Positions 20,760 to 63,309 of a DNA stretch of 64,000 bases are shown one piece after another (position 1 is the stretch's first letter; every line of letters begins with the position of its first letter). Both the position numbers and the translations under genes were made by a program. The DNA comes from Octopus vulgaris (lineage: Eukaryota), in assembly GCA_951406725.2 (NCBI GenBank), contig OX597839.1:992001-1056000 (forward strand), read 5' to 3'. The notes under the pieces are model-generated. The model was not told the DNA's origin. It saw nothing but the letters and a program-made list of their open reading frames with translations, and ran no database searches.

Positions 20760-22733
20760 TGTGGGAGACTCTTCTATGTTTCTGTTGTGTGCCCGCAGAC
20801 GACACGTAGGCTAGTCCAACTCGTATAAATAATGGACGTGATAGCTAGTCGGAAAAGCATCCCGCCGATTCTTAAAGTTGAGTTGGTGGAGAGAAAGCAT
20901 AGAGCGAGGCGAAGTTTTGTGTCTTTGATATTACTCACAAGTGAGTTGTTGCGTTATGTTATATTGAATTGTTGAATCGTTGAATAACGGAATTGTTAAA
21001 TTGCTGTATTATTGAATTGTTGAACTTGTAGTTATTTGAAGTTGTTGAAAATTTTGTTTGTCTTCCCATTTAATGGGTGAAGCGCTAAATAACGAAAATA
21101 TGCAGGTCCAGACGGGCAGTTATGTTGCGGTTACAGGCAAAAGTCTGCCAGTGGAGCGACTGCAAATACAGGAGCTGGAAGTGAAAATATAGATTATAAG
21201 AAGTTTTAAAACATTTTGAAGAAGGAAGAAGGTTGTTTGAGACCGACACCCCCAAAAGAACTAGCAGACAATTTGGAAAGAAAAATCATCACCTATCGAA
21301 CGCTGAACATAGCGACATGAGAAATAGAAATAGCAGGCGTTGAAGAACTAGAGGAGTGTTTGAAAGAAGTTAAGGAAGTGACGACTTTCTATAACAGAGG
21401 ACGAAAATTTGGCACGGTGGAGGTACGCTTCGTTAATGAGAATGAAGCAAAGAAGTACTCCACCGTAGCCTTGAAATCAGCACAGTGGGCACGCTTACCT
21501 ACCTAACGTGGCAGACGCGCTACCAGAGTTACAATAGGGAGAGTGCCACCCGATTTAACGAGGACTGGCTTGTGGCAGCTATCCTCTACAACACAGAGGA
21601 GAAAGTGGAAATACTGAAAATGTCAAAGACAGCGGAGGTCAACTAATGGGGGTACGGCCTAGAGTTGATGGTACTTATCAGCCTGCCTGACCTCCACAAA
21701 ATCACAGAAGAGATTGTCCTGACCGATGAGAGCAGACTGAGAGTCATAGTGGAGGGTAGACCACCAATATGCTTTAAATGCGGAGTAAGGAGACACATGA
21801 ATGCAAAGTGTCCCCAGAAACACGAACAAGAAGTAGTGGAGAAGAGAAGTCAGATAGAAGAGAATATAATATCGGAGAAGGAAACAGAGTTTACAATGGT
21901 AGAGAAGAAAGGAAAGAGCGAATCTCCACCGCAAAATAAAAGGAATGTGGAGGATAAAAAGAAGAGAAAAGAAGAAATGAGGAAGCAACGGAGAATCGAA
22001 CTCAAGAGCCAGAAACTTCAACGAGCAAGGATAAGGAAGAACGGAAGAAACGGGGGAACGAGCAACAAACTAGAAATGGAGTCACCAGTTACTGGTGTAG
22101 AGAGTAAAGAAATACAGCCAAGAAAGCCACGCAAAGGAAAACATGAACGAGTGTTGGTGACTTACGAGAGAAGTGTGGAAATGGAAAAGCGTATAGTTAA
22201 AATGAAAGGTGTAATAAGAGTGAAATTAGCAGATAATGAAGAGAACCGCATCATGGAAGCAGTGCTACTGGAAAGTGAAAGAGTGGCAAGATTGAAAGAG
22301 ATATTTGGAAGCAGAGTGTAAATTACAAGAAAGCGTTTTCAATATGATGAATTGCTACCAGTGGTAATGTATGAAGACTTAATACCTTATGCAATATAAG
22401 CATCATAAATACTGGACAAAATCATTAAGAATAAAGAACTGGGACTTTCTAATTTGCTGGGTAGAAAGCCATTTCATTATCATAAGTTCACACTTCATAA
22501 TTCATTCGTAAATCATTCTATGTACCCCACATTTGTTTTTGTAATGTCCATTCTATAGAAAAGGCTTTTTATCAATAATAAAGAGAAAGCTTTTAGAGAG
22601 CCGGAGCCTTCGGTAGACTAGACGTCGAGTTATGTTGTTTCGAGTCGTCGGAAGTAAGAGTTCGGTAGTTGAGAAGGGGTACGTTATTGGTGAAGGCACA
22701 CCATCCGAACGTGCGATATAACAGTTTCCAACA
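20760..22733 (+). mobile_element. ~2 kb TG...CA-bounded element containing a decayed Tx1/L1 ORF1-like gene
   Basis: Ends TGTGGGAGAC / GTTTCCAACA (8/10 inverted match); SYVAV, GTVEVRF, RVTIGRVPP and VEGRPPICFKCGVRRHMNAKC (CCHC) in a disrupted ORF from ~21073; AATAAA near 22577; no ORF2 follows. Confidence 0.6.
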
Positions 22734-23330
22734 ACCCTCCCTTTTATTCCTTTCTAAGACTAATACCTTACAAAACCTAACCAATTTTATTGTCATTGCC
22801 TTTCACGGCAAGGCTCCATTTGCTGTTGACGATTACCCACGTCAACCCCGTCTAAAATCATTCTTTAATACATTCTCTGTATCCTTGGCACGTCGCCAGT
22901 GACGACTTTAGCTTCTTGTCTGTGTAACCGGCCGGTTTTAAAATTGTCTTCTAAGGTATTCTAAGCTGTCCCTAGTGATCGCAAACTTCTTATCTGTGTA
23001 ACCGACCGGTTCGAAAATTGGACAGCTTAAACAATCTTTATCTGCTGGCCTACAGAATACTTTGTATAGATACGACCTGGGCGATCCGATGCAATTCGAC
23101 CACGTCCACATTGGCGCATCCGAGACATCCAATCTGTATCTAGCTCAGAGAGCTTGAAAAATTTGAGCATGTCTGTGAGGCTTTTACCACACCTCCTCAA
23201 TCCTTTAGCTCTTACCAGTCAAAGCATCGCTCTTAAAGCGAAACTGTACGCGAAAACTTGTCGATCGGTGAGTCTGGTTTCACTGATGGACACTACATCG
23301 GCACCTTGCTGATTATTGTAGTGTAGTTGA
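22734..23330 (-). mobile_element. L1/Tx1 endonuclease-region fragment
   Basis: DVVSISETRL; PMWTWSN.IGS.RSYL..VF; homologous to 29400-30200. Confidence 0.75.
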
Positions 23331-23614
23331 AAATGTTTGAAAAGGACTCTTCGTAGACCGCAAGTTGCCAATGACTGTTTTAGAGTCTTCTTTAAGCAGT
23401 CAGGTATCAATTTACCCAAAATAGAATAATGAAGTTATTAATAAAATGGGTGGAAAATAATGTTTGCAAGACTTCAGAATTCTAGCATCACTCCTCCTGT
23501 TATAGGCAGAAGGCCTGAAAATTGGGAAGGAGGACTATTCAATTACACCTTAAGCCTGGTGCATATTCTGTCGATGCCGTTAGTGGAATGGCTTCATTTG
23601 GAGACGTAAACACT

Positions 23615-23651
<37 letters not shown>

Positions 23652-23676
23652 ATATGTAGGTAGGTAGATAGATAAA

Positions 23677-23710
<34 letters not shown>

Positions 23711-24026
23711 CACAGATATAAATCATTATATGTACCCCACGTTTGTCTTTGTACACACACGTTTAGATACAATATAGATACACACAGAAAGTTTAAAATA
23801 CAATATATACAATATATATACACACAGACACTCTGTAAGCAGATTGTTGAATGGCCGTTGAATACGTTGTAGTTCCTCCCCCTTTTAACGGGCCTAATTT
23901 TTTGTCCCGCAGGGTGTCCAACAAATACCAAGTCTGGAGGGTTAACAGTTTAGTCGTCGACGACCCGACTATACAACAGATTGTACTGGGCTACATGTTA
24001 CCAGTTACACTCAAGAGCGACCTGAC

Positions 24027-27789: not shown

Positions 27790-30290
27790 AACAGAAACCG
27801 AGGCTAGGCAAATGGATCGCCTAACCATCAGAACGTTTCCCTTCCGCAAAAAGTGGAACAGTATGCGTTCCTCTTTGGTGATGGTACGGTCGGGACACGG
27901 CATTACGATCAGGCGGTAATAGATGACGGATGCGATGTACGTGTTCACCAACTCCGCCCGACGTTTTAGGGATAGCTTTCTCTCGGCTCATTACTGGATG
28001 AAAATGACCACCCGATTCGTTACGTCATCTCAGTTCTCCATTTCGACGTCCGGGCCGAACCAGACCCCGAGCAATTTAACCGGTCCGTCGCTCCAGTATC
28101 CCAAGATGAAGACGCTGTTGGACGGCATGGACCTGCCTCTCCAGGTGCCAAGCCACAAGCCCACTGACTTTTCCAGTTCATTTTCGCTCCCGTTACCGCT
28201 TCGTATTTTTTAGTGTCTCGTTGACCAGGTCGATATGACTGTGACTCGACACTATGACAGTGACGTCGTCCACGTATGCAGATACGCTCCTCATGTATCC
28301 CAGTTGTCGCCAGATGCCTCTCAGCGTCGCCGGCTACCGCAGTAGTGACTCTGGAGTTAATAGGTACAGAAGCAATGAGAGATGGGCATCCTTGACGGAC
28401 CGAACATGTAATGTTAAATGGTCTAGATAGATGGCCATATACTTGAACCACCGAGCGGATGCCGCTGTGTAAGTCACTGATCCAAACGCAGAAGACGGGA
28501 CCAAATACACCCTCTTTAAGGCCAGCCTCCAAGTAACGATGGTCGTCCCTACCGAAAGCTTTCAATTGATCCAGCGCCCCACCAATGCCAGGATTTTAAC
28601 TACTCTGTCTATGATGTAGCGCATCAGATGGAGGTTGTCATGGCTACACCTGCCCAGCACGGGGCATGTTTGCGCATTGTCGACCAGTTTCTCGATGACA
28701 TGCACCAACCTCTCACCTAGCACCTTGGCCAAAATCTTCAAATCTGCGTTGAGCAGAGTGATGGGCCTAAAGTTATATCTGTTTGGATCTTTCTTTAACG
28801 GAACCACTGCTCCTCAGCTCTCAAAACTGGGGATACTCCCGTTTTTCTGCCAGTTGCAGTAGAATGCTACGAAGAGGCCTCCAAACAAGTCTGGCATATG
28901 ACAATAAATCATGTAATGCAGACCATCAAAACTTAGAGACTTGTCTCCTGCGCAGCCTGCCATCGCATCCCGGACGTCTGCGGTTGTGATGGGTTTTTCC
29001 CAGCATTGAGCTTGCCGTGAGTCGTAGCAAGCCATGCAGTTAGGCGCTAAAGTCCTCACTGTGTTCTGACCCACCAGTTGTCTTGAACAGTCGAGCAAAT
29101 CGCTGTTGAAAGGCCTCACACATCCTTTTGGGCTCGAGTAATTCGCACCCCTCTTCATCTGTCAGAGACCTAATGGTAGCTTTGTTGCCTCATTGCGCTT
29201 CCGCCGCTCGGGACTCTCGGGCGGTTCCAATTTCTTCGTTTCTCAGAGCAAGCATCCTATCTCTGACAACGCATCCTTTGTGTTTTTGGTTGAAGTGTTC
29301 GTCGGGGGCCAACCTCGCCGCTAGCACGTTGGACGCGATGCCACTTCTATGTACCTCTTCTAATTGTTTAACCAGGTTATCCTCTATTCTATTTCGATTT
29401 ACCGCTAGAGCCTTACTATACCTAACCGATTCTGATTTAATTGCTTCCTTATGAGCACACAACATCTATTGTTGACGATGGCGCCCGTCAAAGCCCTCTT
29501 AACTAATGTGCTAATCCGGTATCTGTAAGCATGGCGCGCCGAGAACGACGCGTTCAGTTTCCAATAACCGGGACTCTGCCTATGATTCATATATAAGTCA
29601 AGCGTACAAGTCACAAATTTGTGATATGTGTATCTGACTATATGTAATTGTGGACAACCTACACTATCCCTATCCACTGTCCTACAGAATACTCCATATA
29701 AATACGATCTGGATGACCCGATGCGGTTGTTCCATGTCCACATTGGCACATTCAGGCGGTCCAGTCGGTACCTGCCAGACAGTTGGAAACGTCTGAGCAG
29801 GTCTTTGAGGCATTTACATCCCCTCCTATTCCTACTTCTACCCACGTAGTCTGGGTGCGTGTTCAAGTCCCCCACTAAAGGTAAATGTCGAGACGTTCCC
29901 AGGAAAACTTCTAGACGTCGAAAGATATCCGACCGATCTGCTAAGGATAAACTGTTATCAATCGAAAAACACACCCATTACTGCCATCAACATCCAAGAC
30001 GGCAAGACGACCAGCCTACCCTCTGGGTCTAGGAATATTGCTCTTCTTTCGAGGTACAGACTCTTCCGTAAAAAGCTCTGCGGTACCACCCCGCCCATTT
30101 TTGGCAGAGATGGAGAAAAATAAATGTCGAATTGTCCGCCGAATATGTGCTGGAGGCACCGCGGCTTGTGTAGTCCGGTCTCACTGATGGCTATGATATG
30201 CATATTCTGTGACTTGATGTCATTTAACAGGTAGCTATGTTTCCAAGGCGACCCTAAGCCATGCATATTTATACAACCTGTTCTAAGCAT
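27790..30290 (-). mobile_element. L1/Tx1 ORF2 pseudogene (APE endonuclease + RT)
   Basis: INMHGL...IIAISET; LVGDLN; PGYWKLN; NFRPITLLNADLKILAK; SVRQGCP; multiple frameshifts. Confidence 0.9.
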
Positions 30291-30544: not shown

Positions 30545-31720
30545 TACGGGTGGAAAAGTTTTAATGATAGCTCAGCTTGATCAAGTCGAATCTGGGTCTA
30601 AACAGCAACAATAAAATGTAAGGATACATTAAATAATGCATTCCTGGATACACCATGCCTGATAAACAGTCGTGAGGTCACGGGTGGAAAAGAGTTAATG
30701 ATAATTCAGCTTGATAAGGTCGATTCTTGGGCTAAACAACAACAATAAAATGTAAAGACACATTAGATAATATATTCTTAGATACACTATGACGGGTAAA
30801 ATAAAAAAAAAGGTGAAGAATGTTGATGATGGTAAAAATATACCAATTTATTTATCATCTCCACTGCTTCCTTTGATGGTAGCAACTGTATATAAATTTC
30901 TACCGCCTGCCTCCCGCCAGATCTCTAACGTTCACTTGAAAAATCTGTGTGTAGAGCTTTAACAGCAGGATAATGATATTTTTCCGTAAATGTAGGATGG
31001 CATGTTTATTCATTGTCCGATTTATAGATCTTTGCTCATATTTAGAGAACAAACGAAGAGAGAAAAGTAAAGGGTATTGGGGTAAGGTGTATCTGTGGTC
31101 TGGAAGATCCTTCATAATGTTTGTAGATGTAGCTCAAAATATGCAGGCCATAATGAAAGCAAAAAAGCAGTGAAGAAATCGAACTTTTGGTCTGAGTTTA
31201 GAAAAAGATCTTACATTTTAGATCATGTTGCCGAGAAAAGGATGCATTAGAAAACAGGACACATGAGATTATAAATGAACGTGATGGTCACGGATTGAAG
31301 AGATCTAATGACAACTCAGTTTGATCGGATCGAATCTGAGGTTAAACAACAACAACAACAACAAACAGGTAAGGACACATTAAATCATGTATTCCTAGAC
31401 ACACTATGTCTGATAAACAGTCGTGATGGTCACGAGTGGAAAAGTTTTAATGAAAGCTCAGCTTGATCAGGACGAATCTGGGTCTAAACAACAACAATAA
31501 AATGTAAGGATACATTAAATAATGTATTCCTAGATACACCATGCCTGATAAATAGTCGTGAGGTCACGGATGGAAAAGAGTTAATGATAATTCAGCTTGA
31601 TAAGGTCGATTCTTGGGCTAAACAACAACAATAAAATGTAAAGACACATTACATAATATATTCCTAGATACACTATGACGGGTAAAATAAAAAAGTAGGT
31701 GATGAAGTGTTGATGATGGA
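30545..31720. repeat. Two clusters of a ~134 bp tandem repeat (30545-30830 and 31260-31720)
   Basis: Recurrent ACGGGTGGAAAAG..TTAATGATA..TCAGCTTGAT.AGGTCGA...AAACAACAACAATAAAATGTAA. Confidence 0.85.
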
Positions 31721-31817: not shown

Positions 31818-34800
31818 CCAGATTAATCTTTGCTCCTCTCACCGCTTAGTACTCCCTTGCAACAGAGGAGGTCCCTTCGATTTACGAACTCTCCGACACT
31901 ATTACAATCACGTCGTCCGCATAAGCTGACACGAAACGTCTGTATTCCAGTTCACGCGTGATGGGCCTCAAAATATCCAAATTGCTCAGTAATGGCTCGA
32001 AAGCCAGCATGTACAGAAGGGGTGAGAATAGACATCCTAGATGTACCAAACGGATGATACTAAACGGTTTCGATAGGTGGTCATTTATTTAGACCACTGA
32101 ACAGATGTCTTTGTAAGACGTCCAGCCTCTGGAAACAGGACTGGAAACAGTATTCATGGTCAACCCCTTCGAAAGCTTTTGACTGATCCAAATTGATCAG
32201 TACCCTATCGATGCTACGTTCCTTTCCTACACTTCCTTTGAGGTAGCGCGTCAGGTGGTGGTTGTCGTGGATAGATCTGCTCAGGATTGTGCATGTCTGC
32301 ACGTCACCAACAAATTTATCTTCAACAAGTACCTAAGTCTTGGCTAACACCTTGGCCAAAACCTTATAATCTGCGTTGCCCGTTGTGGGAGACTCTTCTA
32401 TGTTTCTGTTGTGTGCCCGCAGACGACACGTAGGCTAGTCCAACTCGTATAAATAATGGACGTGATAGCTAGTCGGAGAAGCATCGATCCGATTCTTAAA
32501 GTTGAGTTGGTGATTTGGTGGAGAGAAAGCATAAAGCGAGGCGAAGTTTTGTGTCTTTGATATCACTCACAAGTGAGTTGTTGCGTTATGTTATGTTGAA
32601 TTGTTGAATCGTTGATTGACGGAATTGTTAAATTGCTGAATTGTTGAATTGTTGGATTTGTAGTTATTTGAAGTTGTTGAAAATTTTGTTTGTCTTCCCA
32701 TTTAATGGGTGAAGCGCTAAATAACGAAAATATGCAGGTCCAGACGGGCAGTTATGTTGCGGTTAGAGGCAAAAGACCGCCAGTGGAGGGACTGCAAATA
32801 CAGGAGCTGGAAGTGAAAATATAGTTTATAAGAAGTTTGACAACATGTTGAAGAAGAAAGAAGGTTGTTTGAGACTGACACTCCCAAATGAAGTTGCAGA
32901 CAAGCTGGAAAGAAAAATGATCACCTATCGAATGCTGAACATAGCGACATGAGAAATAGAAATAGCAGGCGTTGAAGAAATAGAGGAGTGCTTGAAAGAA
33001 GTTAAGGAAGTGACGACTTTCTATAACAGAGGACGAAAATTTGGCACGGTGGAAGTACGCTTCGTTAATGAGAATGAAGCAAAGAAGTACTCCACCGTAG
33101 CCTTGAAATCAGCACAGTGGGCACGCTTACCAACCTAATGTGGCAAACGCGCAGCCAGAGTGACAATAGGGAGAGTGCCACCCGATTTAACGAGGACTGG
33201 CTTGTGGCAGCTATCCTCTACAACACAGAGGAGAAAGTGGAAATACTGAAAATGTCAAAGACAGCAGAGGTCAACTGATGTGGGTACGGCCTAGAGTTGA
33301 TGGTACTTATCAGCCTGCCTGACCTCCACATAATCACAGAAGAGATTGTCCTGACCGATGAGAGCAGACTGAGAGTCATAGTGGAGGGTAGACCACCAAT
33401 ATGCTTTAAATGCGGAGTAAGGAGACACATGAAGGCAAAGTGTCCCCAGAAACACGAACAAGAAGTAGTGGAGAAGAGAAGTCAGATAGAAGAGAATATA
33501 ATATCGAAGAAGGAAACAGAGTTTACAATGGTAGAGAAGAAAGGAAAGATCCAATCTCCACCGCAAAATAAAAGGAATGTGGAGGATAATAAGAAGAGAA
33601 AAGAAAAAATGAGGAAGCAACGGAGAATCGAACTCAAGAGCCAGAAACTTCAACGAGTAAGGATAAGGAAGAACGGAAGAAACGGGGGAACGAGCAACAA
33701 ACTAGAAATGGAGTCACCAGTTACTGGTGTAGAGAGTAAAGAAATACAGCCAAGAAAGCCACGCAAAGGAAAACATGAACGAGTGTTGGTGACTTACGAG
33801 AAAAGTGTGGAAATGGAAAAGCGTATAGTTAAAATGAAAGGTGTAATAAGAGTGAAATTAGCAGATAATGAAGAGAACCGCATCATGAAAGCAGTGCTAC
33901 TGGAGAGTGAAAGAGTGGCAAGATTGAAAGAGACATTTGGAAGCAGAGTGTAAATTACAAGAAAGCGTTTTCAATATGATGAATTGCTACCAGTGGTAAT
34001 GTATGAAGACTTAATACCTTATGCAATATAAGCATCATAAATACTGGACAAAATCATTAATTATAAAGAAAAAAACTGGGACTTTCTAATTTGCTGGGTA
34101 GACAGCCATTTCATTATCATATGTTCACACTTCATAATTCATTCGTAAATCATTCTATGTACCCCACATTTGTCTTGTAATGTCCATTCTATAGAAAATG
34201 CTTTACATCAATAATAAAGAGAAAGCGTGGAGCGAGCCGGAGCCTTCGGCAGACTAGACGTCGAGTTATGTTGTTTCGAGTCGTTGGAAGTGAGTGTTCG
34301 GTAGTTTAGAAGGGGTACGTTATTGGTGAAGGCACACCATCCGAACGTACGATATAACAGTTTACAACAATCCTTTCTTTTATTCCTTTCTAACACTAAT
34401 ACCTTACAAAACCTAACCAATTTTATTGTCATTGCCTTTCACGGCAAGGCTCCATTTGCTGTTGACGATTACCCACGTCAACTCCGTCTAAAATCATTCT
34501 TTAATACATTCTCTCTATCCTTGGCACGTCGCGAGTGACAACTTTAGCTTCTTGTCTGTGTAACCGGCCGGTTTGAAAATTGGACATCTTAAACAATCTT
34601 TATCTGCTGGCCTACAGGATACCTTGTATAGATACGACCTGGATGACCCGATGCGATACGACTGCGTCCACATTGGCGCATCCAAGAAATCCTATCTGTA
34701 TCTGTCTCAAATATCAGGAAATATTTGAGCATGTCTGTGAGGCTTTTACCACACCCTCCTCAATCCTTTAGCCCTTACCAGTCAAAGCATCGCTCTTAAA

Positions 34801-35479
34801 GCTAAACTGTGCGTGAAATCGTGTCTGTCGGTGTGTCTGCTTTCACTGATGGACACTACATCGGCACCTTGCTGATTATTGTAGTGTAGTTTAAAATGTT
34901 TGACAATGAATCTTCGTAGACCGCAAGTAGCCAATGACTGTTTTAGAGTCTTCTTTAAGCAGTCAGGTATCAATTACCCAAAATAGAATAATGAAGTTAT
35001 TAATAAAATGGGTGGAAAATAATGTTTGCAAGACTTCACAATTCTAGCATCAATCCTCCTGTTATAGGCAGAGAGCCTGAAAATTGGGAAGGAGGACTAT
35101 TCAATTACATCTTAAGCCTGGTACATATTCTGTCGATCCTGTTAGTGGAATGGCTTCATTTGGACACGTAAACACTGAAAGAAGACCGTCGTACATACAC
35201 ACACACGCACACGCACGAGCATACACGCACGTGTACACACATACTTACACACATCACAACACAAACAGACTTTCTGTTCGTCTGTGTGTATGCATGTGCG
35301 TGTATGTATGCGTTTATATGACAGGCCCTTTTCAGTTTCTATCCTCCACATCCGCACAAAAGTTTTTTGTCGAACCGAAACAATTGTAGAAGACACTCAA
35401 GCTGCCAGGCTGTGGGACTGAACTCGAGACCATGTTTTTGAGAAGCAACATTCTTTCCATATTGTTACGCCTACACAGC

Positions 35480-35578
<99 letters not shown>

Positions 35579-35914
35579 TTAGATATGTACCCCACGTTTG
35601 TCTTTGTACACACACGTTCAGATACAATATAGATACACACAGAAAGTTTAAAATACAATATTTACAATATATACACACACAGACACTCCGTAAGCAGATT
35701 GTTGAATGGCCGTTGACTACGTTGTAGTTCCTCCCCCTTTTAACGGTTCTTATTTTTTGTCCCGCAGGGTGTCCAACAAATACCCAAGTAAGTCTGGAGT
35801 GTTAACAGTTTACTCGTCGACGACGCGACTATACAACAGATTGTACTGGACTACATGTTACCAGTTACGCTCAAGAGCGACCTGACATATATATTATATA
35901 TATATATATATCTA

Positions 35915-44345: not shown

Positions 44346-44569
44346 ATATATATATATATGCATATATATATATATATATATATGTATATAGATATATATA
44401 TATATGGGTGTGTGTGATTGTGTATAGAAGAATATATTAATAAAAAGAATTCCAACCTTGTCTGATTTTCACGTTTTATTTACAATCTTATAATGATATA
44501 TTATAAGATAATATATTATAATTGAATAAAATAAAATGAAATAGTAGAATGTTAAATATTCATTCTGAT

Positions 44570-44614
44570 TGAACTAGTACTTTCATGCATTGAATTCTGC
44601 AATCTTCGGGTTCA
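44570..44614 (-). ncRNA. Minimal PLE-type hammerhead (variant core)
   Basis: TGAAC-CCGAAGA-tTGCA..TGCAt-GAAA-GTAC-TA-GTTCA; palindromic stem III; U4C. Confidence 0.65.
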
Positions 44615-44649
44615 TGTAGTAGTGTTGACAGTCATGCTTCACAATTTTT

Positions 44650-44795
44650 GACTGTAGCAAGATGAGTGATTCTGTGCTATAAATACAGCTGGGTAGGCTC
44701 CAGAGTGCTAGGTTTTGCAAACTGTATTCTGACCAATCAGTGTGTAGTATCACTCAATTACTTAAGCTGATTGGTTGGTTGAGCTGATTGGTTTA
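44650..44795 (-). promoter_or_regulatory. Putative Pol II promoter in the PLE pLTR
   Basis: Three CCAAT(CAG) boxes at ~44733, ~44770 and ~44787; TATTTATA at 44685-44678; Inr-like CAGT 32 nt downstream (44653). Confidence 0.5.
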
Positions 44796-45108
44796 GGCAT
44801 CACGCTTTGTTGGACAGGTCAAGAGTCCTGTATCTTGACCCTGGCCGAAGCAGCAATTGTTGGGTTATTTTTAGAAATGTTGTAAATATCCTTTGTCAGA
44901 GATTTTTATATTTTTATATTTCAATTGTCATCATCATCATTGTCAGCACCTTAATTATTGTTGCTAGTGGTGATGGTGGTGGCAATAGAACTTTTAACCC
45001 TAAATAAGATAATTTTCCTGCTATCTTCGTCTTGATCACCTTTAGTATTGTTGTTGTTGTTAGTGGTCATGGTCGTAGCAGTGGAAGTAATACCTCTAAG
45101 TATTATTA

Positions 45109-45774
45109 TTATTGCTTATTTAGCTTGGGTTCGAATTTATCAATAAAATTCTTTTCTCTGATTTTCCTCTCGATTTCACTTGGGCTGTGTAATTTGTAGA
45201 ATGGAAATATTATATATATTTTCCGACCACATGTTGCTAGGTGGTTACTCAAAGGTATCTGACGGACCTCTGGGTCTCTAATCTGTTGCCGGTGTACACG
45301 TGAGCGTTCTAATAGTGCGTTTCCCGTCTGACCTACATATATTTCTTCACAATTTGGGCATTTGATGCAGTAAATTAAATTTCTGCTTTTGCAGTTCATA
45401 TTCGCGTTTGTGAATATTTTCCCGGTTTTTGTGTTTATATATTGACCGGTATGTATGAATTGGCATGTGCCACATCGGCTATCATTGCATTTAGATACCG
45501 TGAATGTTTGGTCTTTGTTGCTGAGGTCAAATTTTGCCTTTGTTAGTAATGTTTTCAAGTTTTTAGGCTGTCTTTTACTAAGCACCATAGCTCGATCCTT
45601 GATTATGTCTTTTAATTCATTACTTTGGGCAATGATTGGTAGGTTTGCTTTGGCAATGTTGAAGATATTCTGGTGACATGGGTTGTGTGTCACTATGAAT
45701 GGTATGACTTGTTCTTGTTTTCCTCTTCCTTGGGTTGTCCTAAGTTGTTGTATAGGTATTTTTATAGCCCGCTG
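45109..45774 (-). CDS. PLE ORF C-terminus: Cys-rich linker and GIY-YIG endonuclease (open frame, 5'-truncated)
   Basis: IPFIVTHNP; [10 protein letters not shown]; CNDSRCGTC; [27 protein letters not shown]; RE..FI.KF.P.LN. Confidence 0.92.
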
Positions 45775-45808
45775 TATATATGTATATATATATATATATA
45801 TATGTATG

Positions 45809-47689: not shown

Positions 47690-47742
<53 letters not shown>

Positions 47743-47747
47743 CATAC

Positions 47748-47831
<84 letters not shown>

Positions 47832-47950
47832 ACAATCAAGGAACGGCCATAATAGGCCATTCACCCACTAGAAATAACAGCCAAAGCTTCAACCGCAAAT
47901 AAAGATTAATTCCGTAAACAGGAGAAAATTTAAAAAACATTTACCCTGTA

Positions 47951-48057
47951 ATTTCTTGTACGATGCACCGTTTCATCTGCTGTTTAATGGTAAACTAACC
48001 TGATTAAATTAAATCAAGCCAATCTTCCATAGGCCCTCAGATTCTTCAGCAAGAAAT
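47951..48057 (-). ncRNA. Type I hammerhead ribozyme
   Basis: Reverse complement of the 49238-49344 motif. Confidence 0.85.
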
Positions 48058-48441
48058 AGCCAAGTCGGAACAGATATTTTCACGAGGCATTTCCGACCCT
48101 GCCAAGGCAATATCTGACCTAAAATTTTCAAATCGTCGCACTCGCGCCAAATTTATCGGCAGCAAATAAATATAAGCCGTCGATTCCATTACGGAATTAA
48201 CCAGAAAATTCATAATTAATCAATATAGGGTGGCAAAAAAAATTTTGTAGAATTCTTTTTGCCACCAGCGGCCTAGTGGGAAAAAATTAAATAGTCATAG
48301 ACCATTTTTAAGTTCAACATCAACAATCAAGGAACGGCCATAATAGGCCATTCACCCACTAGAAATAACAGCCAAAGCTTCAACCGCAAATAAAGATTAA
48401 TTCCGTAAACAGGAGAAAATTTAAAAAACATTTACCCTGTA

Positions 48442-48548
48442 ATTTCTTGTACGATGCACCGTTTCATCTGCTGTTTAATGGTAAACTAACCTGATTAAAT
48501 TACATCAAGCCAATCTTCCATAGGCCCTCAGATTCTTCAGCAAGAAAT
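48442..48548 (-). ncRNA. Type I hammerhead ribozyme
   Basis: Second tandem copy, 491 bp from the first. Confidence 0.85.
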
Positions 48549-49237
48549 AGCCAAGTCGGAACAGATATTTTCACGAGGCATTTCCGACCCTGCCAAGGCA
48601 ATATCTGACCTAAAATCTTCAAATCGTCGCACTCGCGCCAAATTTATCGGCAGCAAATAAATATAAGCCGTCGATTCCATTACGGAATTAACCAGAAAAT
48701 TCATAATTAATCAATATAGGGTGGCAAAAAAAATTTTGTAGAATTCTTTTTGCCACCAGCGGCCTGAGGGCCTATGGAAGATTGGCTTGATTTAATTTAA
48801 TCAGGTTAGTTTACCATTAAACAGCAGATGAAACGGTGCATCGTACAAGAAATTACAGGGTAAATGTGTTTTAAATTTTCTCCTGTTTACGGAATTAATC
48901 TTTATTTGCGGTTGAAGCTTTGGCTGTTATTTCTAGTGGGTGAATGGCCTATTATGGCCGTTCCTTGATTGTTGATGTTGAACTTAAAAATGGTCTATGA
49001 CTATTTAATTTTTTCCCACTAGGCCGCTGGTGGCAAAAAGAATTCTACAAAATTTTTTTTGCCACCCTATATTGATTAATTATGAATTTTCTGGTTAATT
49101 CCGTAATGGAATCGACGGCTTATATTTATTTGCTGCCGATAAATTTGGCGCGAGTGCGACGATTTGAACATTTTAGGTCAGATATTGCCTTGGCAGGGTC
49201 GGAAATGCCTCGTGAAAATATCTGTTCCGACTTGGCT

Positions 49238-49344
49238 ATTTCTTGCTGAAGAATCTGAGGGCCTATGGAAGATTGGCTTGATTTAATTTAATCAGGTTAG
49301 TTTACCATTAAACAGCAGATGAAACGGTGCATCGTACAAGAAAT
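49238..49344 (+). ncRNA. Type I hammerhead ribozyme with a long stem II extension
   Basis: ATTTCTTG-CTGAAGA-ATCTG...CAGAT-GAAA-CGGtgcaTCG-TA-CAAGAAAT; 8 bp stem I, intact core, GUA triplet. Confidence 0.88.
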
Positions 49345-50613
49345 TACAGGGTAAATGTTTTTTAAATTTTCTCCTGTTTACGGAATTAATCTTTATTTGC
49401 GGTTGAAGCTTTGGCTGTTATTTCTAGTGGGTGAATGGCCTATTATGGCCGTTCCTTGATTGTTGATGTTGAACTTAAAAATGGTCTATGACTATTTAAT
49501 TTTTTCCCACTAGGCCGCTAGTGGCAAAAAGAATTCTACAAAATTTTTTTGCCACCCTATATTGATTAAATATATATATATATATATATTTATATATATG
49601 TGTATCTATGTATGTATGTATGTATGTATGTATATGTAATGCATATTCCACTTTCCACTAGGAACGTAGCAGAGAACATTATAGAGCTCGCTCACCGTCA
49701 GAGTTACCGAAGAGTCGGTAGCATTACCATATACTTCCATTCGTCGTGTGTGAAAATAGAAATATATACGATATAGTGATCAAGAAGGAGCACGGTTTGA
49801 TAGTTATTTTTTTAATCACTACACAGGAGTCGCTGTGTGTTAAGTACCTTGTTTACCAACAACATGGTTCCGGGTTCAGTCCCACTGCGTGGCACCTTGG
49901 GCAAGTGTATTCTACTATAACCTCGAGCCGACCAAACCCCTGTGAGTGGATTTGGTAGACGGAAACCAAAAGAAGCCCGTTGTATATATGTATATATATG
50001 CGTGTGTGTGTTTGTGTGTCTGTGTTTGTCGCCCTAGCATTGCTTGACAATCGATGCTGGTGTGTTTATGTCCCCGTCAAATAGCGGTTCGGCAAAAAGA
50101 GACCGATAGAATAAATACTGGGCTTACAAAAGTATAAGTCCTGGGGTCGAGTGGCTTGATTACAGGCGGTGCTCCAGCATGGCCGCAGTCAAGTGACTGA
50201 AACAAGTAAAAGAGGAAAGAGTACACGTTTCCATATGGTATAGTTCTTCATATATACAGGTATTTGATTATGCAACCGTTTAATTGCAAAAGGGGATCCA
50301 GTTGTATTTCTTCAGGTGATGCTCAATTGCAGTCGCCGTTTTTATTTAAACTAACGGACACAGCAGTTGAATATCTCCGGAGAAAATACAACGATCCTAT
50401 CATACAAGTAAACGGCTGCATAATCTAATACCTGTATATATGAAGGACAATGCCGTATAGAAACATTTGAAGTGATTGAAAATAACATTATATATATATG
50501 TATATATATATACATATATATAAGGATATTGCACTATACCTACTTATAACTGATTTTGTTGTATCTGTGTACATGCGTATATGCATATATGTTTATATAT
50601 ATATATATGTCTG

Positions 50614-54913: not shown

Positions 54914-55872
54914 TATGTTTGACTTTTGCTATATATTTGTACAAGTTGGCTCCAAGTCTCACCCAGAGACCTCAAGAGACAACAGGGTTGGAAGTTCATG
55001 TTGTTGTTATGCCTAGTGTGCCATATATTTGGGGGGTGGGGGTGTTGTACTAATGAATGTCTAAAAAAAGGTGGGGTGTTTTTGTTTTTTTTTAAACCGA
55101 AAATTATGTTTGTTTTAAACCTTGGGATTACATAGAAAGTATTTTGCGTAGGATATGAGTAGTTCCCATGAGCACTATCTTTTGAATTTCTGTCATTTTT
55201 GGGTTTCCTGGTATCTGAGTTAGGTAACTATCAGCCCATTTTGCTATCATTCCCAGGGCACCTATGACAACAGGTATTGTTTTAGTCTTCAGCTTCCACA
55301 TTTTGCTGATTTCTATTTCAAGATCTTTATATTTGCTCAGTTTTTGGTAGGTCTTGACAGATACGTTTATATCAATTGGGACAGTCAAATAAATGAGGAG
55401 GCATGTTCTTTGTTTGAAGTCTTTCAATATGATGTCTGGCTTATTTGCATCTATCTTTCTGTCAGTTTGAATGGTGAAGTTCCAGAGGAGTGAGATGTGG
55501 TCATTTTCAAGCACTGGGGGTGGTTTGTGTTCCCACCAGTTTTTTTCATGGGGCAAATCCAGGTTTTTACAGATTACCCAGTGAATATATTGTGCAGCTC
55601 TATCGTGCCTGTTGAGATACTCTGTAGGCGCTAGAAGACTGCATTTGGAGACAACATGGTCAATGGTTTCATTTTGTTGCTTGCATACACGACACGTTGG
55701 ACTGCTTCTGATCTTTAATATGTTGGCCTGGTAGTTTCTTGTTGGTCGGCATTGATCTTGAGCTGCTATGATAAACCCCTCTGTTTCAGATTTTAAGCCG
55801 GAGGCCATTAGCCATTGATGGGTCAGGGCTTTGTCAACATCTGCATTATTTGCTCTCTTTGGGTATTTGCCA

Positions 55873-55873
<1 letters not shown>
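54777..55873 (-). mobile_element. R4/Dong-type LINE 3' part with a duplicated 3' UTR
   Basis: ORF 55128-55808: ETEGFIIAAQDQ, CRVC..ETIDHVV, RHD, KPDIIL, KLSKYKDL; 3' UTR repeated at 54777 and 54913. Confidence 0.93.
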
Positions 55874-55912
<39 letters not shown>

Positions 55913-61186: not shown

Positions 61187-63068
61187 ATGTTTGCCTTTTG
61201 CTTTACATTTGTACAAGTTGGCTCCAAGTCTCACCCAGAGACCTCAAGTGACAACAAACTGGAAGTTCATGTTGGTGTTATGCCTAGGGTGTCATATATT
61301 TGGATGTGTACATAGTATTGTTCTAGAGAATGTTTAAGAAACCATAAGAAAATTATGCTTGTTTTAATATTTGAGATTACATAGAAAGTATTTTGCGTAG
61401 GAGATGAACAGTTCCCATGAGCACTATCTTTTGAATTTTTGCCATTTTGGGGTTTCCTGGTATCTGAGTTAGGTAGCAATCAGCCCCTTTTTCTATCATT
61501 CCCAGGGCACCTATGACAACAGGTATTGTTCTAGTCTTCAGGTTCCACATTTTGCTAATTTCTATTTCGAGATCTTTATATTTCCTCAGTTTTTGGTAGG
61601 TCTTGACAGATACGTTTATATCGATTGGGACAGACATATAAATGAGGAGTCATGATTTTCGTCTGAAGTCATTCAATATTATGTCTGGCCTATTCGCATT
61701 TATCTTTCTATCAGTTTGAATGGTGAAGTTCCAGAGGAGTTAGATGTGATCATTTTCAAGCACTGGAGGTAGTTCGTGTTCCCACCAGTTTTTATCATGG
61801 GGCAAGTCCAGTCTTTTATCCAGTGAATATATTGTGCAGGTCTATCATACCTGTTGAGATACTCTGTAGGTGCAAGAAGACTGCACTTGGATGCATGATC
61901 AGAGGTTTCATTTTGTTATTGACATACACGACATGTTGGGCTACTGCCTTTTTTTAATATGTTGGTCTGGTAATTCCTTTCAGATTGTAAGCCAGAGGCC
62001 ATTAGCCATTCATGGGTAAGGGATTTGTCAACATCGGCATTATTAGCTCTCTTTGGGTTTTCAGTCAGAATATCTAAGGCAGCAGTTTTAGCACGGGTTT
62101 TCATGCACTTAGCTTTTTTTCTGCGCTTGTTTCTCGTATGCCTAATTCCGGAATTTGTTGTATATGGAATTCACTTAGATATTTCTTTGCCTATTTTGTT
62201 ACTGAGTACGATGCTTTCTTGATTTCATGTTTTGAGACAAGTTTTAACATCCAGTCCTCAGAGTTTTTCAGGTAGGTGTCTAGGCCAGTTGTGGTAATCT
62301 TCACTCTTATTGCCAGTTGTAAAAGTCCACGGCCTCCCTCTTTTCTTGGCAGATGTAGTCGTTCTATATCTGCCTTAGGGTGCTGCATTTTATGCATTGT
62401 TAACGGTTTTCGTATTTTTCTGTCAAGAATACATATTTCAGTAATTGACCAGTTAACGATATTGAACCTGTAAGTCACGACTGGTAGGGCTAAAGCATTG
62501 ATCGCTTCGATCCTGTTTCTCGCATTCAGCTCAGTATTGAGTATTACTCTTACTCTGCGATGACACTCTCTCCTGATCTTTTCCTTTGTCACTGAATGCC
62601 TTATTCCGTCCCCTTCAATTACCTCTAGGTATTTGTAGCTCTCCGTTGGGTCTAACTCTTTTATGAAGGTTAACGTTAGATGTTTCGCTTATTTTTCCTT
62701 TGATAAAGGTAGCTTTTGCACATTTATCTATGCCAAATTGCATTCTGATGTCATCACCGAATTGTTTAACAATCGCTAGTAAGCTCTTGAGTTGTTGGTC
62801 ATTTTTTGCAAAGAGCTTTAAATCATCCATGTAAATGAGATGATTTATATTTTTATCAAATATTTTATAACCGTACTGTGCATCATTAAGTAATTTTGAG
62901 AGAGGTATTAAGGCTAAACAAAAGAGGAATGGTGATAGTGAGTCACCCTCGAAAATGCCACGTGAAATGTTTACATCTGCAGCATTTAGAGATTCACTGT
63001 CACTGTTCAAAGTTAGTGTGGTTCTCCATGATCTCATACTATCAATCCAAGGGGGCCTTTCGTTGTGT
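61187..63068 (-). mobile_element. R4/Dong-type LINE (RT to 3' UTR), decayed
   Basis: RGIFEGDSLSP.LF; NHLIYMDDLKL; FGIDKC; ELNARN.I.AIN; RLE end; same family as 55128; microsatellite flanks. Confidence 0.93.
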
Positions 63069-63160
63069 TTTATTATTATTATTATTATTATTATCATTAT
63101 TATTATTATTGTTGTTGTTGTTGTTGTTGTTTTTGTTGTTGTTATCATCATCATCATCAA

Positions 63161-63236
<76 letters not shown>

Positions 63237-63245
63237 TTCATTATT

Positions 63246-63283
<38 letters not shown>

Positions 63284-63309
63284 TATTATAATCATTATTA
63301 TTATTCAAT

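Follow-up and report, generated by a model that had tools for sequence, protein, structure and literature searches.

The locus described here, a non-coding 491-bp repeat carrying a ribozyme motif and arranged as two opposed arms between TA microsatellites, raises the question of how such a repeat is copied and inserted, and by which enzyme. Both the integration route of retrozymes in animals and the cause of Penelope inverted copies with a one-sided tail are stated to be open in the available text of PMC7229834, PMC8557442, PMC11167929, and bioRxiv 10.64898/2026.07.22.740005. The relevant features of the 64-kb window (the whole stretch of DNA that was analyzed) are given below, with unit position 1 being the first base after the cleavage site.

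44370..45777, minus strand: separate insertion, a 5′-truncated young Neptune-like Penelope copy, with its GIY-YIG domain at 45112-45741
47690..47829, no strand: (TA)n microsatellite, left portion of the insertion target, read from the sequence
47828..48765, minus strand: left arm, unit positions 176-491, 1-491, and 1-131, with its outer end at site A (+131)
47951..48057, minus strand: complete type I hammerhead from the descriptor scan, predicted cut after 47959
47959..48449, minus strand: predicted 491-nt monomer between both minus-strand cut sites, putatively released
48442..48548, minus strand: complete type I hammerhead from the descriptor scan, predicted cut after 48450
48764..48765, no strand: head-to-head junction of two 5′-truncated arms, with 2-nt microhomology
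48764..48853, plus strand: 5′-truncated hammerhead lacking the 5′ strand of stem I and CUGAAGA
48764..49573, plus strand: right arm, unit positions 410-491, 1-491, and 1-238, with its outer end at site B
49238..49344, plus strand: complete type I hammerhead from the descriptor scan, predicted cut after 49336
49520..49557, plus strand: hairpin just upstream of site B, present in sister families
49029-49066 (plus), 48229-48266 (minus), and 48720-48757 (minus): further copies of the site-B hairpin
49570..49635, no strand: (TA)n/(TATG)n microsatellite, right portion of the insertion target

Comparison of the window with itself gave a period of 491 at 99% identity and inverted arms of 704 nt and 530 nt, bearing out the 491-bp period and head-to-head layout of the original prediction. 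The array does occupy the span 47830..49569 assigned to it there, but its arms run 47828-48765 and 48764-49573, with ends that overlap the TA runs; the head-to-head geometry had also been seen, but not that it is the family's standard two-fixed-end Penelope-type insertion. The array sits between two TA microsatellites, and a target-site duplication would not show in such (TA)n flanks. The right arm ends at +234 to +238, running into the TA run. Elsewhere in the window, two similar blocks ~11.6 kb apart (21647-23949 and 33279-35801) contain near-identical ORFs (zinc-knuckle-like, 224 aa) and represent a local duplication or two retroelement copies. Fragments resembling decayed LINE-type reverse transcriptase/endonuclease frames lie at 28020-29977, 55128-55874, and 62191-63304, and 134-bp tandem repeats with ~83% matches at 30546-30791 and 31280-31677.

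Exactly three type I hammerheads were detected when both strands of the window were scanned with a descriptor (core CUGANGA, GAAA, and NUH, three stems, and stem I open). Each contains an 8-bp stem I, CUGAAGA, GAAA, a GUA triplet, a stem III closed by UGCA, and a stem II consisting of a 5-bp base with a long extension of about 58 nt. The scan thereby confirmed the three complete motifs and one truncated motif that had been placed here, together with the core, stem I length, stem III loop, and long stem II ascribed to them. The catalytic fold was calculated to lie 0.5 kcal/mol above the minimum free energy (−31.0 vs. −31.5), and a cofolded dimer reached −79.3 vs. 2 × −31.5 kcal/mol, a gain of ~16 kcal/mol, with the two copies predicted in this model to pair through palindromic stem-loop III. 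Among 38 family-1 loci, loop III was found to be palindromic (UGCA or UAUA) in 32 and non-palindromic (UACA) in six; the family 2 hammerhead has C at core position 4, and both points count against the reading preferred below. No match to an Rfam hammerhead model was obtained at the gathering score, with only chance matches at E ≤ 10, probably owing to the long stem II; a match to Rfam is not, however, a defining feature of the hammerhead fold.

Covariation of the stems among genomic copies, which the ribozyme reading implied, was indeed observed. Among 33 hammerheads drawn from three families, pairing was found in 98% of stem cells, as compared with 28-44% in slid controls, and double changes affected nine of 15 stem pairs in all three stems, although the three families are related and the sequences were selected by core pattern, such that few independent events are represented and the invariance of the core is to some extent a product of the sampling. 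Changes that restore pairing occur in each of the three stems, both between and within families, and imply that the fold is under selection.

The unit is a dispersed family present at several hundred places. Genome-wide, 1,121 exact ribozyme cores were counted in the 2.8-Gb genome (0 in the reversed control), and contig 1 carries 83 cores in 25 loci, extrapolating to ~340 loci. Units differ by 0.5% within a locus, including between arms, and by 1.9% between loci, indicating that both arms share one source. Two successive units that each carry a complete hammerhead are present on the minus arm of the window, and longer head-to-tail runs elsewhere reach a dozen or more units per arm with no intervening ORF. 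The unit has a GC content of 0.37 and folds as a circle with a z of −5.7, and units of all three families do so with z from −5.1 to −8.3 (30 shuffles). Two older sister families, of 487 bp and about 459-470 bp, are colinear with the unit, have homologous ends, and lie in TA runs; a fourth, older sister family is likewise colinear and TA-associated with homologous ends, and all four families are colinear along the whole unit. No ORF conserved across the unit families was found, and a 55-codon ORF in the unit was rejected as coding sequence, being missing from the sister families.

Several variants of the family were also noted. A tandem 240-nt mini-unit at L069:4723-5291, with an internal deletion joining +139 to +391, keeps the hammerhead and site A. 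L141:4038-5606 and L199 are two separate family-1 insertions ~290 bp apart, the first having an arm of 12 or more units with six private variants in every unit. A hairpin at unit positions ~335-380 (~49180-49225 of the window, plus strand), upstream of the hammerhead, includes a GCCUCGUG motif that is conserved throughout the four families.

In these properties, the family agrees with the criteria by which animal non-LTR retrozymes are recognized in sequence, with circles predicted. As in the metazoan non-LTR retrozymes described in the accessible sections of PMC7229834 and bioRxiv 10.64898/2026.07.22.740005, the family is made up of non-coding units in tandem, each with its own type I hammerhead, and shows a GC content below 45%, dispersed multimers, a structured monomer, and coexisting Penelope elements; its 491 bp compares with 150-450 bp in the former and 51-972 bp in the latter. 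It differs in the ~58-nt stem II extension and in that no homologous coding pLTR was found here.

The distinction from an ordinary pLTR depends on what adjoins the unit. In 155 loci containing the unit, a sample of several thousand candidates searched by tblastn with one protein query, no Penelope ORF was detected closer to it than 400 bp; the nearest match among these loci lay 443 bp away, beyond a TA run. A genome-wide search for a short-stem hammerhead with a UGCA loop gave nine matches, mostly sister-family derivatives, with no coding partner seen. The copy-number and linkage search that had been suggested for the locus thus favors the proposed retrozyme over a plain pLTR, as do the dispersed tandem loci, the covarying stems, and the structured unit. 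It is improbable that an undetected autonomous Penelope instead has the unit as its pLTR (5′ leader together with 3′ end), with the arrays as truncated by-products. Its end structure does match Penelope insertions, frog retrozymes are homologous to pLTRs in the available text of bioRxiv 10.64898/2026.07.22.740005, and the genome searches scored only the best 40 of 1,474-2,553 candidates; against this, a dozen or more units can stand head to tail in one arm with no ORF between them, four families are colinear over the full unit with no ORF in common, and neither an adjoining Penelope ORF nor homology to the coding element described below was found. The lack of Penelope RT/endonuclease-like sequence within 400 bp in the 155 loci supports, at the sequence level, the view that the unit behaves as a non-autonomous non-LTR retrozyme.

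How the unit is inserted was read from its ends in 79 family-1 loci: 39 first chosen as best matches, including the window, 20 chosen by position on contig 1, and 20 chosen mainly by one haplotype. L033 was left out as a duplicate of L032 with the same flank, and L070 as having no unit; L032 and L033, ~510 kb apart on contig 29, share an identical insertion and flank, representing a segmental duplication or a duplicated haplotype. With A ends defined as +124 to +136 and B ends as +227 to +242, A+B ends were identified by BLAST in 52 of the 79 loci, and reading the ends of 27 loci by eye added six with short or deleted arms (L065, L184, L192, L195, L199 with L141, and L200). Overall, 58 of the 60 two-armed loci with standard ends pair an end ~131 nt past the cleavage site with one ~238 nt past it. 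None of the 79 loci has A+A ends, two have B+B ends, both with a flank that is itself inverted-duplicated (509 and 158 bp), and 19 are single-armed or non-standard. Among the position-sampled contig-1 loci, A+B ends were found in 17 of 25 by BLAST and in 22 of 25 when readings by eye are included. Independent choice of sites would make about half of the loci same-ended, and under that null 58 mixed loci of 60 have a probability of ~1e-15. The head-to-head form is the normal insertion product of the 491-bp family.

(TA)4 occurs within 30 nt of 134 of 138 arm ends, overlaps of 1-6 nt were found in 18 of 33 junctions, and the inner 5′ ends of the arms are scattered over the unit. These 5′ ends show no excess at the cut site (3/72 within ~6 nt), such that the genome carries no direct mark of in vivo cleavage, and the arms cross the ribozyme site repeatedly. 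An assembly artefact, or an ordinary satellite with a chance hammerhead-like motif, can scarcely account for this arrangement. Inverted structures can be misassembled, and the two mirrored-flank B+B loci (L052:3108-5369 and L216:1640-2510) may be a secondary inverted duplication or misassembly, but the left and right flanks of the window insertion are unrelated to each other, its arms stop at different unit positions (+131 vs. about +234 to +238), the pattern recurs in 58 loci, and the stems covary. The unit was also present in the contigs of all four public runs examined, none of which is on record as RNA; such contigs carry no information on strand, ends, or circles and are neutral as to expression.

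In L1 twin priming, two primers on the target strands give rise to head-to-head arms with microhomology at their junctions, as in the 491-bp family. The second L1 site varies, however, and the L1 arms occupy separate parts of the template, whereas the 491-bp family has two constant sites 107 nt apart and arms that span a common sequence.

A further parallel is provided by Penelope, whose insertions are recognizable by 3′ ends at fixed positions, truncated 5′ ends, an arm in inverted orientation, and a tail on one side only (PMC8557442, PMC3846280; available text). The 491-bp family shows fixed 3′ ends, variable 5′ truncation, an inverted copy, and a one-sided tail. Like endonuclease-positive Penelope insertions in the accessible parts of PMC8557442, PMC3846280, and PMC11167929, it has partial tandems, a head-to-head inverted copy, a tail at one end, two internal RT start sites, and a microsatellite or AT-rich target. 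Unlike those insertions, with a tail of 30-40 bp, the unit has no ORF, its tail of ~107 nt falls outside the Penelope range, and both arms can be multi-unit; its hammerhead has a long stem II, as opposed to the minimal type of Penelope elements. According to the portion of PMC11167929 available, a Penelope enzyme, once purified, nicks both strands in vitro and extends them, two internal RT start sites bound the tail, and the enzyme is predicted to be a dimer.

Target priming of the first arm only, followed by fold-back self-priming of the second with the first cDNA or an antisense strand as template, is an unlikely origin of the inverted arms. Such a model has been proposed for Penelope inverted ends (PMC3846280, available text) and agrees with the junction microhomologies, with a few near-palindromic junctions (L061 and L041), and with the haplotypes common to both arms. 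In seven of 30 A+B loci, window included, however, the shorter arm includes sequence missing from the longer one, and the longer arm may be either, being B in 18 of the 30; both observations disfavor fold-back copying. Furthermore, arm offsets span the whole unit, and a self-primed second arm would have to stop precisely at the other fixed site.

A candidate for the enzyme that would prime at both sites is represented within the window itself. The Penelope fragment ~2 kb from the array derives from a 4,271-bp (4.27-kb) element, a full unit of which is present in L093:3627-7897 (minus strand) and for which all 150 scored matches, the best 150 of 19,683 first-look candidates, were 100% identical. 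The element encodes an RT followed by a C-terminal GIY-YIG domain, with a CX2-5CXXC linker motif and a DKG motif, and is Neptune-like by sequence, Neptune and Nematis both fitting. Its insertions lie in (TA)n and include tandems and head-to-head pairs; in all 12 two-armed copies scored at both ends, which were picked as head-to-head pairs, a short end is paired with one 30 nt longer, the length of its tail, and two further copies agree by BLAST. Of its two overlapping frames, one spans ~430 aa without a match in Pfam and the other 775 aa (RT/GIY-YIG); they are offset by −1, the overlap contains a seven-T run resembling a slippery site, and recurrence of the 775-aa frame in dozens of copies suggests programmed frameshifting.

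No significant sequence similarity between the coding element and the unit was detected, nor was a hammerhead found in the element by descriptor or model, and it was accordingly rejected as a hammerhead-bearing or homologous partner. As a helper acting without homology, it is the foremost candidate at present, an assignment for and against which we see the case as evenly balanced. Counting against it, other TA-associated Penelope families are present in the genome, leaving the element a candidate helper, and no cross-mobilization between Penelope types is reported in a rotifer (PMC3846280, available text). Non-coding dependants of Penelope with multicopy head-to-tail insertions are exemplified by Chlamys MRC1; in the available text of PMC8557442, the Chlamys elements share 3′-end similarity with their autonomous partners, whereas similarity of the 491-bp unit to a partner was not found, and the Chlamys clade has no canonical hammerheads, unlike the unit. 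In L063:2320-3500 (minus strand), a different GIY-YIG Penelope fragment has a 3′ repeat with a short hammerhead-like motif of variant core, and shares the TA run in which it ends with a family-2 unit.

On this evidence, the 491-bp family is likely to be a non-LTR retrozyme copied in trans by a TA-targeting Penelope RT/GIY-YIG protein, with both target strands primed at two fixed sites; mobilization of retrozymes by Penelope has been proposed in PMC7229834 and bioRxiv 10.64898/2026.07.22.740005 (available text of both). The enzyme, probably a dimer, would nick both strands of (TA)n, with one target 3′ end starting cDNA at A and the other at B, aided by short AT microhomology. Each cDNA would then run upstream, over anything from one unit to about twelve, with an uncut multimer or a religated circle as its template, and the two cDNA ends would be joined by microhomology. 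The hammerhead, probably aided by loop III pairing of two copies, would cut transcripts into RNAs of unit multiples, and we lean slightly towards these predicted RNAs being circularized by a host ligase. Hairpins between A and B may, by hypothesis from the modeled folds, shorten the 107-nt spacer to approximately the normal tail length.

The 491-nt monomer, as originally proposed, is a prediction that the positions of the two minus-strand cut sites entail. A transcript of the window locus driven from its flank would meet the antisense arm first and was predicted to fold into a hairpin of ~700 bp, with 92% of it paired and 699 long-range pairs, which makes the locus a poor source of monomer unless there is an internal promoter. 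Productive sense RNA would thus probably need an internal promoter or one-armed loci. No trace of A-to-I editing was found among 183 unit-private changes (A>G 10 vs. T>C 20, p 0.46). Private variants are fixed in six of 29 long loci, and in L199 six are fixed in 14-15 units of both arms, which fits a monomer bottleneck such as a circle. Within-array variants, on the other hand, recur at mixed spacings, which a single monomer circle cannot give, and L042 has an aberrant unit common to both arms, indicating from sequence that some templates are heterogeneous multimers. A five-unit circle, suggested by one variant in L067/L068, was ruled out by 20 further loci, in six of which the variant is fixed and which showed it to be an allele of a subfamily, and exact n-mer periodicity was rejected as well, a two-unit spacing occurring in five loci, yet with differing spacings inside L034, L184, L199, and L201.

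These variants also bear on the possible, if doubtful, reading that the ribozyme is irrelevant to the present cycle, the templates being linear read-through multimers with no circle and the arrays growing by unequal exchange. The mixed spacings and the shared unit of L042 are in keeping with it, as are the arms that cross the cut site freely, the role of uncut RNA as the main in vitro substrate (PMC11167929, available text), and the lack of cleavage in eight of nine frog dimers (bioRxiv 10.64898/2026.07.22.740005, available text); the compensatory changes, present in every one of the three stems, imply that the fold has been under selection, and the fixed private variants of L199 and the six long loci are as a single-unit bottleneck predicts, both of which speak against it. 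This reading overlaps the preferred one, that of a Penelope-copied retrozyme, and the ribozyme step is the sole difference between them.

Retrozymes, Penelope tails, and inverted copies are already published, and the element class is not new. As far as the available text of PMC7229834 and bioRxiv 10.64898/2026.07.22.740005 goes, insertion ends, head-to-head arms, TA targeting, and fixed start sites are not described; 'octopus' is absent from the main text of PMC7229834 in its available part, and 'ribozyme' was not found in the available part of the octopus repeat annotation (PMC13282606), while a giant squid paper lists 235 hammerhead hits (PMC6962438, available text). In the openly accessible literature searched, neither a description of the 491-bp family or its 107-nt tail nor strict end pairing in a retrozyme was found.

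The 491-bp family, with its sharp rule of pairing A with B, connects a retrozyme with Penelope chemistry through a footprint in the genome. It supplies a 491-nt template with mapped start sites, and the same genome supplies an intact, very young candidate enzyme, making the question ready for an existing in vitro assay. More tentatively, the family may be a long-lived self-cleaving circular RNA lineage lacking homology to its helper, whose folded RNA mimics a two-site tail, such that an RT dimer would roll along the circle from both strands and the A and B starts would be obligate partners. If such mimicry is true, strict A+B pairing would explain inverted, tailed Penelope insertions in general, and would provide a direct demonstration of how animal retrozymes move.
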